A DNA stretch of 46,863 nucleotides, taken from contig JAAYLN010000019.1 in the NCBI GenBank assembly GCA_012521875.1, forward strand, positions 1-46,863, in the 5' to 3' direction. The notes beneath the pieces were generated by a model. That model saw only the letters and a list, made by a program, of their open reading frames with translations. It had not been told where the DNA came from and did not search any database. Source of the DNA: Lentisphaerota bacterium (GTDB taxonomy: Bacteria; Verrucomicrobiota; Kiritimatiellia; RFP12; JAAYLN01). The position numbers were made by a program, and so were the translations under genes. Positions 1,009 through 17,388 of this stretch are shown piece after piece (position 1 is the first letter of the stretch; the number at the start of each line of letters is the position of its first letter).

Positions 1009-1494
1009 GCGGGCGTTGCCCTGCGCTGGTATATCCCGCCCCTTCAGGGCTTTCATCAACTTTGTCGCGAGCCTTGTCGGTAACTTTGTCGAAAGCTAAA
1101 GATTAAGCTGGTGGAGTAAGCGTGCCGTTTAAGAGTGAGTTTAAGTGCGGCTGTTTTAAGTGGGTGCTTCGCGCTCACAACACCTTGTCCCCACACCTTG
1201 TCTCCACACTTTGTCTCTTTACGCTTCGTCTCCACACTTTGTCCCTACGCTTTGTCGAAAGCGAAAGAGAGCGCGCTGGAGTCTCAGTCTATTCTTTTCG
1301 TACTCAAGCCCCGGCACTGCCGATCCTGCCGGAACTGCCGGCGGAGGGCAAGCGTCGGCTTGCCCGCGCACCCTCGCAACCTCGGACGAGCAGACGCTCG
1401 TCCCTCCCGTGGCTGCGGCCTTGGCACTAAGTTTGGTGCCCCGCCGCGGCTAGCCGGGGGACGGCTTCGCCCCACCTGTGCTGGCGCGCCAGCA
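1009..1494 (+). repeat. Mosaic intergenic repeat block (modules a-b-c-d-f)
   Basis: Ordered modules: a, ggcgttgccctg..ctggtatat..ccccttcagggctttcat (1009-1056). b, TTTGTCG words (1058-1097). c, gattaagctggtggagtaagcgtgccgtttaagag..gggtgcttcgcgc (1101-1175). d, CTTGTC/TTTGTC words (1178-1262). f, hairpin chain ggcaagc-gtcg-gcttgcc, ggacgagc-agac-gctcgtcc, ggcac-taagtttg-gtgcc, gctagccggg..cttcgccccacctgtgctggcgcgc (1305-1494). The same modules recur at 5170, 13580, 17125, 27145, 37257 and 46241. Confidence 0.9.
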
Positions 1495-5020: not shown

Positions 5021-5169
5021 GGCTCCGTCTTCCGTTTGAAAGTGGCGGTTCAGGCAATGGTCATGCATGCGCGCCCGCATGGCGCGCAACCCAGTGGCAG
5101 CAATAACCATCAAACCGCCATTATGGGTTAAGGTAACAGATCGATAAGATAGCGTCAACAGCCGGTTTG

Positions 5170-5660
<491 letters not shown>

Positions 5661-6200
5661 GTGCGCCCAGCATGGGCATGTACTAACCAACTGAAAGGAG
5701 TTGATCGTAAGCAGTGACAGCAAACGTAGCGAACGGCAAGGCCGCGACCGCAAGGGAGCGAGCTGAAGGAAGCCGCTAGCAAAGGCACGGCCGCAGGAAC
5801 ACGAACAGGCAGCGAGGCAGTGTGCGGGCGATGAGTGTGCGAGAGAACACGAAATCCGACAGTCACCGAAAGACGCACGGTGTAGAGCCTGGCGGCGCGG
5901 GCCGGTAGTACATGCACCTTACCTGGGGAGGCCCCGGACGTGAGAGCGCCCGGGGAGTCAGCAGAAGCCATAGTAGCGTGGACGCCCGCCGAAAGGCGGG
6001 AGGAGCGAAGGGCCGAAGGACAACGAGAGTGCGATCGGTCAACCGTCTTGGAAGGACGGCGGGGAGAGCCGTGAAACAAGGGGGCGCAACAACTGCGGTA
6101 GCCACCCCCGCGGCGCGGCGGACGGTGCCGGTGGATTCCGGCACCCGTCCACAAGCGCGCGGCTCCAGTCCGACTTCCAGCGACAAGGAGACAGCAGAAG

Positions 6201-7475
6201 ATGCACAATGAAGAGAACACGGGAACGGCAACACTGGAGACGGTGCTGTCGAGCGAGAACATGCGGGAGGCCTGGCGTTCGGTGAAAGCCAACGACGGAG
6301 CCCCCGGTGTCGACGGACTGGATGCCAAGGCGACGCTGGAACACCTGCGGACGCACTGGGGCGGAATCCGTGCCAAGCTGCTGGCCGGGGAATACAAGCC
6401 CGGCGCGGTGCGTGCGGTGGACATCCCGAAGGCAAGCGGCGGCACGCGCCGTCTCGGCATCCCCAACGTACAGGACAGGCTGATTCAACAGGCCATCCAC
6501 CGGACACTGTCCCCGCTCTGGGAGGCGGAGTTCAGCGGGCACAGCCACGGCTTCAGGCCGGGGCGCAGCGCGCACGACGCCATCCGCGAGGCGCAAGGAT
6601 ACATCCGCGAAGGGAAGGTGTGGATAATCAACATCGACCTGAAAGGGTTCTTCGATGAGGTGAGCCACGACATTCTGATGCGGCTGGTCGCGCTGAAGGT
6701 GCGGGACAAGCGGCTGCTGCGGCTGATCGGCAGATACCTGCGGGCAGCGATGCAGTTCCCCGACCGGAGCAGGGAGAAGCGCACGAAGGGCACGCCGCAG
6801 GGCGGCCCGCTGTCGCCGCTCCTTGCCAACATCTACCTCGACCCGCTGGACAAGGAGATGGAGGCGCGCGGACTCTCGTTCGTGCGCTATGCGGACGACA
6901 TAGCGGTGTTCGCCTCAAGCGAGCGCTCCGCCGCCCGCATCCTTAAGCGCCTTATAAAGTGGATCGAGAAGCACCTCAAAATCCCCGTGAACCGGGACAA
7001 GAGCGGAAGCGGGCCGGTGGACGAGAGCGCGCTGCTGGGGTTCCGGCTTGGCCGGGACGGCGGCGTGTACGTCTCGCCGAAATCCATAGCGGAGCTCAAG
7101 ACCGAGGTGCGCCGGTTGTGGGACGCGCGGCAGAACCGGACGGAGGAGGGACTGGCCGCCCAATGGGGCAAGTTCATCAATGGCTGGTGGGAATACTTCA
7201 AAATCGCGGACAGCGGGTACGAACCGCGCAACCTGAGCGGCTGGATACGCCGCCACATGCGCAAGTGCTTCTGGCTGCGGTGGAGAACGCCGAAAGGGAG
7301 ACTCAACGCCCTCGCACGCCACGGAGTGAAGGGGCGCTCCCTTGGAATCGCCTACACCGGACTGGGCGCGTGGCGCGTTGCTCGATCACACGCGATGCAA
7401 CACGCGCTGAAGAACTCGACACTCAACGCGATGGGGTTGTCCATGCCGTGGGACTTCGCGAGGGCACATGTGTGA
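6201..7475 (+). CDS. Group II intron reverse transcriptase/maturase (no endonuclease domain)
   Basis: 424 aa. The N-terminus SENMREAWRSVKANDGAPGVDG is typical of intron-encoded proteins. RT motifs include PKASGGTRRLGIP, GTPQGGPLSPLLANIYL and the catalytic YADDIAVF. A maturase-like C-terminus follows (WINGWWEYF, RRHMRKCFW), with no HNH/En extension. AAGGAG lies 9 nt upstream of the ATG. Confidence 0.95.
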   Translation: MHNEENTGTATLETVLSSENMREAWRSVKANDGAPGVDGLDAKATLEHLRTHWGGIRAKLLAGEYKPGAVRAVDIPKASGGTRRLGIPNVQDRLIQQAIHRTLSPLWEAEFSGHSHGFRPGRSAHDAIREAQGYIREGKVWIINIDLKGFFDEVSHDILMRLVALKVRDKRLLRLIGRYLRAAMQFPDRSREKRTKGTPQGGPLSPLLANIYLDPLDKEMEARGLSFVRYADDIAVFASSERSAARILKRLIKWIEKHLKIPVNRDKSGSGPVDESALLGFRLGRDGGVYVSPKSIAELKTEVRRLWDARQNRTEEGLAAQWGKFINGWWEYFKIADSGYEPRNLSGWIRRHMRKCFWLRWRTPKGRLNALARHGVKGRSLGIAYTGLGAWRVARSHAMQHALKNSTLNAMGLSMPWDFARAHV

Positions 7476-7490
7476 CCCTTGCCGTGTCCA

Positions 7491-7565
7491 ACCGCCGGAT
7501 GCGGATCCGCATGTCCGGTGGTGTGGAAGGGGCGCTGGGCGCAATCCCATGCGCCCCCATCCGAT
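7491..7565 (+). ncRNA. Intron domain V and VI region
   Basis: ACCGCCGGA-UGCG-GAUC-CGCA-UG-UCCGGUGGU folds as a 9-bp lower stem containing a G-U pair, a 2-nt bulge, a 4-bp upper stem and a tetraloop. This is the standard domain V shape, with a CGC triad as in class C introns. It is followed by a GGGGCGC..GCGCCCC stem (domain VI-like) and the 3' AU. Confidence 0.6.
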
Positions 7566-7800
7566 CCGTGGCTGCGGCCTTGGCGCCAAGTTTGGTGCCC
7601 CGCGTGCGGCTAGCCCGACTTCGCCCCATCTCTGCTGGCGCTCTCGCGGAAACAGCCACCAGTGTGGCGCGGACATTCCTGTCTGCGCGGGCAGGCAGGA
7701 ATGCCTGCCCCACACTACCACGCTCCATCGCTGCGGCTAGCCGGAACGGCTTCGCCCCACCTCTGCTGGCGCTCTCGCGGAAACAGCCCAGCCACTCGCC
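7566..7800 (+). repeat. 3' continuation of the interrupted module f, plus a palindrome module and a second module-f tail
   Basis: Sequence in order: ccgtggctgcggccttggcgccaagtttggtgcc..gctagcc..cttcgccccatctctgctggcgc; then cagtgtggcgcggacattcctgtctgcgcgggcaggcaggaatgcctgccccacactaccacgctccatcgc (7660-7733); then gcggctagccggaacggcttcgccccacctctgctggcgc again. Confidence 0.85.
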
Positions 7801-7926
7801 ACCAACCCGACCATCGAGGCTGGTTTTCGACAACCTCGGCATTCTCCGCAACATGTACGGGCGGCACGCATGCCGCCCCCGCCGCCCCGGCGGCGGCACA
7901 CTGCCTACTGCAACTGCTCCCCCGCA

Positions 7927-13497: not shown

Positions 13498-14364
13498 GGG
13501 TTCGGGGTTCAGGGTTCAGGGTTCAGGGTTCAGTAACGCCGACCGCCCCTGCGGGGCGGTTGGAACAGGCCAGAGACGCCACTATGTCGCGAGCTTTGTC
13601 GGTAATTTTGTCGCCTTTGTCGAAAGCGGCTTTTTTCCTCACGGAGGCACGGAGACACAGAGGCGCGGAGAGGGGGTGGGAGAGAACCGTTTGCGACACA
13701 ACTCAGTTGTATCGCAGAAGAGGGTAAAAATGTTCCAAAGTTATGGGCCGGCGCCTGTACCGAACCACCCCGCACGCCGCACCGGCACAGGCTCACGGTA
13801 CGGCAACCGAGAGGTAGGGCGAGCCGTCCACGTCACGCCGCTACGCGGTGTGACCGGCGAGCCGCACAAAGGCGATGAACCGCCAAGACGCCAAGAGCGC
13901 CAAGTGAATTTCGTAATTTTACATTTGTGATTTGCGATTGGAGAGCTCGCGCTCGTTCTCGTCCTCGAGCCCCGGTACTGCCGGTATTGCCGGCGGTGGC
14001 AAGCGTCTGCTTGCCCGCGAAACCGAGGACGCGCAGACGCTCGTCCCTCCCGTGGCTGCGGCCCCGGCGTTTTGTCTGATGCCCTGCGTGCGGCTAGCCG
14101 GGACGGCTTCGCCCTACCTGTGCTGGCGCGCTTCTGCATGAGCGCCTCCCTCAGTGTGGCGCGGACATTCCTGTCGTGGAAGACAAGGTGTAGGAGACAA
14201 GATGCAAGCGCGGAGCACACACTCTAAACCCTCTCTTAAACTCACTCTTAAACTCATTCTTAATCGGCACGCTTACTCCACCCGCTTAATCTTTAGCTTT
14301 TGACAAAGTGTGGGGACAAGGTGTGGAGACAAAGTGTTGGGACAAGGTGTGGAGACAAGGTGTA
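13498..14364 (+). repeat. Mosaic intergenic repeat block
   Basis: Modules in order: (GGGTTCR)x5 (13498-13532). Hairpin gaccgcccc-tgc-ggggcggt. Module b (13580-13627). cacggaggcacggagacacagaggcgcggag words. Module ggtagggcgagccgtccacgtcacgccgctacgcggtgtgaccggcgagccgc..aaccgccaagacgccaagagcgccaag (13813-13904). Reverse cacaaat words. Module f (13966-14135). The left half of the palindrome module (14152-14176). Modules c and d in reverse orientation (14208-14364). Confidence 0.9.
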
Positions 14365-17076: not shown

Positions 17077-17388
17077 CCTTCTTCCCCAGCACTATATCCC
17101 GCCCCTACAGGGCTAGTCGTTTTTAGCCCCATTACCCAGGGCGTTGCCCTGGGCTGGTATATTTCGCCCCTTCAGGGCTTTCATCAACTTTGTCGCGAGA
17201 GCTTTGTCGGTAACTTTGTCGCCTTTGTCGAAGGCAACAGGAAAGCTCACGCGAAGGCGCGAAGCCGGGCCAAGAGCAAGCGGGTGGATGAAGCGTGCCG
17301 ATTAAGAGTGGGATTAAGAGAGGGTTTGGAGTGGGTGCTTCGCACTACACCTTGTCCCCACGCCTTGTCTCCTACACCATGTCCCCCA
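17077..17388 (+). repeat. Mosaic intergenic repeat block (a-a'-b-c-d)
   Basis: Modules in order: two module-a variants, including the hairpin cccagggc-gtt-gccctggg; module b (17184-17234); gcgaaggcgcgaag words; module c (17279-17346); module d (17347-17388). Confidence 0.9.

Follow-up and report, generated by a model that had tools for sequence, protein, structure and literature searches.

What is the 1,905-nt element that interrupts a repeated hairpin sequence between two open reading frames (ORFs) of an uncultured Lentisphaerota bacterium, and is this copy intact? The element occupies positions 5661-7565 on the plus strand of the 46,863-nt contig JAAYLN010000019.1 (assembly GCA_012521875.1); this whole stretch of DNA is what we call the window. 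An earlier note, made from the letters of the window, had read the element as a class C-like group II intron that encodes a reverse transcriptase (RT)/maturase. Our analysis makes an intact bacterial group II intron retroelement of class C (IIC) very probable, given the exact ends of the element, its ribozyme, its protein, and the way that it and its relatives choose their insertion sites.

The ends of the intron are defined to the base. On the 5' side, the hairpin GGACGAGC-AGAC-GCTCGTCC at 5638-5657 is followed by CTC at 5658-5660 and then directly by the intron, which opens with GTGCG from 5661. On the 3' side, the intron ends with ...CCAUCCGAU at 7565 and the 3' exon begins with CCGTGGCTG at 7566. 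When the flanks 5638-5660 and 7566-7584 are joined, a scripted comparison finds that they match the uninterrupted paralogue at 1384-1425 in 42 of 42 positions, just as the earlier note had it. The boundary cannot slide because the bases on either side of the junctions differ (C5660 versus T7565, G5661 versus C7566); the intron RNA is thus GUGCG...AU, and the size of 1,905 nt first proposed for it stands. Insertion took place 3 nt past the 8-bp hairpin and outside genes; the region 5159-7926 is a gap between two minus-strand ORFs, and the intron lies in it on the plus strand. Because the site is intergenic, the host genes do not depend on splicing of the intron.

The ribozyme is found on both sides of the coding region. 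In the covariance-model search that the earlier note had proposed, the window matches RF02001 (group-II-D1D4-3; 90.7 bits, E 4e-17) and RF01998 (5932-6013, 35.5 bits) at Rfam gathering thresholds. The match to RF00029, the model of domains V-VI, comes from a permissive 2.2-kb search of 5500-7700 rather than from the gathering threshold; it covers 7490-7565 (38.2 bits, E 2e-5) and ends exactly at the intron 3' end. Consensus folds of related sequences place D1-D3 and D5-D6 between 5661 and 7565, where domains I-VI were expected to fold. For the 5' part we used RNAalifold on 56 distinct sequences; several pairs in most D1-D3 helices show changes of both partners, and the fraction of paired cells is 88-100%. 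The consensus fold of 34 distinct 3' parts contains domains V and VI with a conserved bulged A. Together with the GUGCG 5' end and the GAU 3' end, this bulged base in domain VI, A7559, completes the hallmarks of a group II intron; lying seventh from the 3' end, it is the likely branch point as predicted from the fold.

In domain V, C7493-G7494-C7495 aligns to the AGC columns of RF00029 and G7494 forms a wobble pair with U7519, so that both the CGC triad and the G-U pair described earlier are borne out by the alignment and the folds. A 2-nt bulge (7512-7513) separates this stem from a distal stem (7501-7503/7508-7510) capped by the loop GAUC (7504-7507). The CGC is retained among relatives: the sequences displayed from the 34-sequence set read CCGCC or UCGCC at the triad.

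The only long ORF suitably placed lies between D3, which ends at 6014, and D5, which starts at 7491. It encodes the 424-aa RT/maturase expected from the earlier reading, with YADD at residues 230-233. Pfam identifies RVT_1 at residues 75-281 (E 7.5e-38) and GIIM at 297-367 (E 2e-8) and nothing else; no HNH or endonuclease (En) domain was matched by Pfam in the protein. It also scores 348 bits with TIGR04416, the NCBIfam model of group II intron RT/maturases, and clears the cut-off of 300. Of the solved structures, the GsI-IIC RT (6ar1; 372 bits, E 3.7e-110) matches best, with residues 10-414 of 424 aligned to residues 2-408 of 428. The second is 7uim (289.5 bits, residues 11-418), and two RT-domain chains come next at 237-242 bits (5hhl/5hhj, which we take to be the Roseburia intestinalis and Eubacterium rectale IIC RT-domain crystals). 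LtrA (118.6 bits) and the maturase of 6me0 (102.3 bits), presumably that of the IIB intron T.el4h, score far lower. The sequence of 7uim is the same as that of 7uin, a code that occurs in the paper on the E. rectale IIC intron (PMC10190682).

Which class of intron is this? According to excerpts of PMC1702495, IIC introns have CGC in the basal stem of domain V where others have AGC; a distal domain V stem 2 bp shorter than in IIA and IIB; a class-specific unpaired 11-nt motif with a conserved AGGAA in the epsilon' region; an exon-binding site 1 (EBS1)-intron-binding site 1 (IBS1) pairing of merely 3-4 bp; and no EBS2 arm or IBS2, the place of IBS2 being taken by a stem-loop. They insert behind terminators or 'other inverted repeats' (PMC1702495). 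All of the IIC-specific RNA features in these excerpts are found in the window intron. The stretch AGCUGAAGGAA aligns to 11 unpaired consensus columns of RF02001. Domain V has a 3-bp distal stem and 30 nt in total; in the relatives the distal stem has 4 bp and domain V mostly 32 nt, and the RF00029 consensus has 5 bp and 34 nt. The earlier note had listed four hallmarks of class C, and all four are present, but one of them, the lack of an En domain, does not by itself point to class C because it is common to classes C, D, E and F (excerpts of PMC4424553). The class C interpretation is supported nonetheless, and the AGGAA stretch, a covarying 3-bp EBS1-IBS1 pairing and the lack of an EBS2 arm go beyond what the note contained.

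The last two features emerged from a comparison with relatives. Scanning one genome per species, we found 118 stretches encoding relatives of the protein and kept the best 80. The nearest is from a Kiritimatiellae metagenome-assembled genome (76% protein identity); the others are mostly from Verrucomicrobiota, with some from Gammaproteobacteria and Acidobacteriota. At most loci, the intron ends could be placed by nhmmer using the stretches of 540 nt ahead of the ORF and 90 nt behind it. Relatives with both ends placed are mostly about 1,880-1,950 nt long (outliers of 1,300, 1,690 and 2,038 nt), and all end-placed relatives start with GTGYGC except three (ATG in L016, GCG in L046, CAG in L083).

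When the last bases of the exon were compared with each intron column by mutual information, positions 5841-5844 stood out. In 58 distinct sequences, exon position -1 combines with 5841 as C-G in 18, A-U in 34, C-U in five and A-A in one, and position -2 combines with 5842 as U-A in 42, C-G in 11, G-C in two, U-G in two and A-A in one; position -3 is C in 57 of the 58. We therefore assign EBS1 to G5841-A5842-G5843 and IBS1 to C5658-U5659-C5660, both because two of the three predicted pairs covary across these sequences and because EBS1 falls in the terminal loop of a hairpin that is itself supported by covariation in the consensus fold of 56 sequences. A fourth position (5844 with 5657) pairs in part of the 58 sequences and is A-C in the window. 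In the predicted consensus fold the D1 d-arm ends in a single hairpin, that of EBS1, and there is no EBS2 arm; exon positions -4 to -23, the place of IBS2, are occupied by the target hairpin. No EBS3 partner was found by covariation, the first 3'-exon base being C in 33 of 34 sequences and G in L013.

Insertion just after a stem-loop, which the note had pointed out for this one site, is a rule of the clade. Upstream sequence of 40 nt or more is available for 55 distinct related insertion sites, and at 44 of them a perfect Watson-Crick hairpin with a stem of 6 bp or longer ends 1-6 nt upstream. The same holds for 60 of 2,750 positions picked at random from these loci (2.2%). The 11 insertion sites that miss include some with imperfect stems, such as L017 and L074. 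One Bryobacterales genome contains eight relatives, and the seven with a placed 5' end (L063, L065-L070) all sit behind the same kind of hairpin. This is a precedent within the clade for a repeat as a landing site. The coordinates of the features are collected in Table 1.

Table 1. Features of the intron and its target site in the window (positions are those of the whole stretch).
Feature	Positions	Strand	Basis
Complete group II intron, very probably class C (IIC)	5661..7565	+	sequence, Rfam, empty site, relatives
Target DNA hairpin in 5' exon, 8-bp stem, 4-nt loop AGAC	5638..5657	+	sequence, DNA fold
IBS1 (CUC), final three 5'-exon bases, assigned	5658..5660	+	covaries with 5841-5843, 58 related sequences
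Ribozyme domain I, predicted	5666..5927	+	RNAalifold consensus (56 sequences); RF02001 match 5744-5916
Unpaired 11-nt stretch AGCUGAAGGAA (epsilon' region), AGGAA 5767-5771	5761..5771	+	RF02001 alignment
EBS1 (GAG), assigned; terminal loop 5839-5846 of hairpin 5835-5838/5847-5850	5841..5843	+	covariation; consensus fold
Domain II, short, predicted	5928..5959	+	consensus fold; start of RF01998 match
Domain III, predicted	5966..6014	+	consensus fold, outer pairs 4/4 changed on both sides; RF01998 to 6013
Intron-encoded RT/maturase, 424 aa, in domain IV	6201..7475	+	ORF list, Pfam, TIGR04416
Domain V, predicted	7491..7522	+	RF00029 alignment, consensus fold, single-sequence fold
Domain VI, predicted, bulged C7558-A7559	7524..7563	+	minimum free energy fold z -4.3; 34-sequence consensus fold
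First 3'-exon base C, presumed IBS3	7566..7566	+	C in 33/34 distinct sequences
Unoccupied paralogous site, identical to joined flanks	1384..1425	+	sequence comparison
Second unoccupied paralogous site, 3 substitutions in 43 nt	14027..14069	+	sequence comparison

The target hairpin of the window copy belongs to a repeat. Its DNA folds with -9.4 kcal/mol (z -3.6), and the 3.96-Mb draft genome contains 50 copies, at up to one mismatch, of the 24-mer made up of the hairpin, CTC and the following C, 40 of these copies being exact; a control pattern gave 0 copies. Across these places (5638-5661 in the window and 49 others) the 24-nt module is strictly conserved and its flanks vary. Thirteen other genomes of the family, among them six from the same genus, yielded no copy of it; as these genomes are 55-96% complete, this means 'not found' rather than 'absent'. 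From its sequence and distribution, the hairpin appears to be one module of a species-specific dispersed repeat resembling repetitive extragenic palindromic (REP) elements. The hairpin is not followed by a T-run, and a scan of 5100-6250 turned up nothing resembling a terminator. Because it lacks a T-run, the hairpin is not a canonical intrinsic terminator; it counts among the 'other inverted repeats' of the PMC1702495 excerpts. About 70 nt upstream of it, at 5530-5566, there is a short tandem run of CTCGTC/CTCGTCC units, which resemble the 3' arm of the hairpin.

The genome-wide count of copies that the earlier note called for gives one: the window copy is the sole occupied site in the assembly. 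Neither blastn with the whole intron nor blastn-short with four pieces of it found further copies or fragments in the assembly, save for matches of 14-19 nt at chance level. In 30 related genomes, there is one full-length relative (G008, 81% nucleotide identity) and none in six genomes of the same genus, the other matches being short and to domains V-VI or the RT motif of other introns; the distribution of the intron among related genomes is patchy. The genome appears to hold several other, different group II introns, judging from five other RF00029 matches (C197:1893-1971, C156:11320-11398, C240:9663-9737, C199:79-155 and C27:79-155) and two other group II RT genes (C240:9934-10995 and C126:109-849) with 35-38% identity to the window protein. 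The C199 and C27 matches have identical coordinates and may come from duplicate contigs.

One paralogue of the target has an unusual form. On the minus strand of contig C409 of the same assembly (G000), at about 1470-1510, the hairpin is followed by TG, ATCCGAT and then CCGTGGCTG; CTC is missing and the last seven intron bases precede the 3' exon. The same form appears as a joint from 5657 to 7559 in three public runs. Since a given 7-mer is expected by chance at one of the roughly 60 hairpin copies only about 0.004 times (by arithmetic), an intron copy that was lost or truncated at its 5' end may have left this site as its scar; alternatively, ATCCG may have been duplicated locally. Elsewhere in the window, at 17135-17179 (+), the Rfam model of the Acido-Lenti-1 sRNA matches with 45.2 bits (gathering score 37).

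Public sequencing runs contain the stretch in 20 rows from 12 studies of anaerobic digesters, bioreactors, landfill and wastewater; the habitat names of runs with small shares (X19, X20) are left out of account. This evidence consists of contigs, from which depth, transcript ends and splicing are not readable. The occupied site recurs in contigs of runs from four studies: in run X1, a single contig extends from 5555 to 7688 with two differing letters, and in X10 contigs cross both intron junctions. In X5, the flank contigs span 5555-5660 on the left and 7566-7688 on the right, with contig depths of 28.1 and 26.8 against 14.1 for the intron contig, about twofold; the left flank contig has four further letters that do not fit the intron. 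In X18, a metatranscriptome, one contig likewise starts at 7566 (7566-7688). These breaks at the intron borders hint at an empty allele in part of the population or at ligated exons in RNA; the joint from 5660 to 7566 is not among the 15 of 32 joints listed. X18 also contains intron pieces, one of which (7401-7595) reaches 30 letters into the 3' exon; we did not count it as expression or precursor RNA, given that it is one letter short of the bridging rule.

Support for the class comes from the RNA features and the ranking of solved structures. Several observations weigh against an intact class C intron. The RF00029 score lies 1.8 bits below the gathering score of 40. Both neighbouring ORFs run antisense to the intron, and a scan of 5100-6250, limited to the sigma-70-type consensus, found no such promoter ahead of it; its transcription is for these two reasons unexplained. 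There is a single copy in the assembly despite 40 perfect empty sites. We infer splicing and movement of the window copy from published IIC work. Finally, the domain V loop is 2 nt short of that of all relatives, and this could weaken docking of domain V.

The last of these points is the basis of the most serious alternative, that the intron is class C by descent but crippled, the loop change impairing docking and leaving splicing and mobility poor. The domain V tetraloop has a role in the zeta-zeta' contact. In the window the loop region reads GCGG-AU-CCGC, 2 nt shorter than in 33 of 33 other distinct sequences; the form occurs in none of the other loci with a D5 match (0 of 78, from 80 searched), 53 of which read CGGAAAACCGC. 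The 2-nt deletion and an A-to-U change are the sole three private changes in conserved RNA columns. The short loop appears to be real rather than an assembly slip because contigs of X1, X5, X10 and X18, four public runs from four studies, span it without gaps; a longer-loop variant also exists in the environment, as minor contigs in X1 and X10 have AA inserted behind 7504, giving a 4-nt loop. A crippled copy would explain why the intron is single-copy in the assembly and occupies 1 of about 41 perfect sites. However, everything else is intact: at columns at least 95% conserved, D1-D3 contain no private changes (56 sequences) and the protein contains one, L374H (55 sequences). With a 3-bp distal stem and a 4-nt loop, domain V has the 30 nt implied for IIC introns in the PMC1702495 excerpts, and so may still work; IIC splicing is strongly protein-dependent (PMC10190682), and the protein may compensate. 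A single copy may equally mean that the intron arrived recently, that it is little transcribed or that repeats collapsed in the draft assembly. We consider a crippled copy unlikely, while giving it real weight.

A broader proposal, which we regard as speculative and rather improbable, is that the lineage, with its CUC or CUA IBS1 and its hairpins without a T-run, moved from terminators to repeat hairpins. The 24-nt module, with 40 perfect empty copies and not found in the 13 relatives, would then be a safe landing pad, and its lone resident would be partly disabled by the 2-nt loss in the domain V loop. The traces of turnover cited for this proposal are the paralogue with only the last seven intron bases and the contig breaks at the intron borders.

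It is very unlikely that the element is an En-less intron of class D, E or F, or of a novel class, that merely resembles class C. The shared lack of En (PMC4424553, in excerpt) leaves some room for this, but every IIC-specific feature of the PMC1702495 excerpts is present, the top four solved relatives, including the GsI-IIC RT and the E. rectale IIC maturase, score 237-372 bits while LtrA and the 6me0 maturase reach just 102-119, and the clade inserts after hairpins and not into long homing sites. That a non-intron RT element (a retron, a defence RT or a diversity-generating element) lies by chance between two repeat halves is next to impossible: it has weak sub-threshold matches to retron and Drt models on its side, but these are far under their cut-offs (76 versus 235 bits, for example), and it is refuted by the passing TIGR04416 score, the Rfam ribozyme domains on both sides of the ORF and the exact empty site.

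For the class C intron that we favor, published IIC work suggests how the window copy would have arrived. The intron RNA-protein particle would have reverse-spliced into single-stranded DNA at a point three bases past a DNA stem-loop, with the site picked by the shape of the hairpin and the 3-bp pairing of GAG with CUC, and probably by one EBS3-IBS3 pair as well. Because the protein has no nuclease, the cDNA would have been primed by the nascent strand at a replication fork. With the hairpin being a species-specific dispersed repeat, the genome would offer about 40 identical further landing sites.

In all this the window intron behaves as the established class does; because its class, target rule and mechanism are already known, it leaves current understanding unchanged. 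What it adds is an IIC intron that is sharply delimited and apparently intact, found in an uncultured anaerobic-digester lineage, together with its natural empty site and an EBS1-IBS1 pairing fixed by covariation. It is also a further example of the use of dispersed-repeat hairpins, besides terminators, by IIC introns. The effect of the shortened domain V loop on activity and the reason why 40 identical sites are empty are points of possible interest.

How does this intron compare with known systems? Its closest known counterparts include B.h.I1 of Bacillus halodurans (PMC1702495, in excerpt) and GsI-IIC of Geobacillus stearothermophilus (6ar1), terminator-homing IIC introns. The window intron has in common with them a compact ribozyme, the CGC triad, the shortened domain V, the AGGAA stretch, a 3-4 bp EBS1-IBS1 pairing with no EBS2, an RT/maturase without En, and insertion a few bases past a stem-loop outside genes; its protein aligns end to end with the GsI-IIC RT. 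Unlike these introns, as far as the excerpts describe them, it has a target hairpin without a T-run, an IBS1 of CUC rather than a run of U, and a position antisense to both neighbouring ORFs, and its hairpin is a module of a 50-copy species-specific repeat rather than the terminator of a gene.

The E. rectale IIC intron (PMC10190682; 7uim/7uin) has the same protein architecture, with an identity that by score lies in the range of 42% or lower, and the same order of target elements: DNA stem-loop, short spacer, IBS1 and insertion site. Its IBS1 is dT-rich, in contrast to the CUC of the window intron. A literature search on IIC introns in REP-type repeats returned papers on IIC introns and none on exactly that combination. 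A parallel in choice of target is S.ma.I2, an IIC-attC intron (PMC4424553, in excerpt). The window site differs from the site described there in having no nearby integron, integrase or attC array and in its perfect 8-bp stem without a bulge; S.ma.I2 likewise lands on a repeated imperfect palindrome and not on a terminator.

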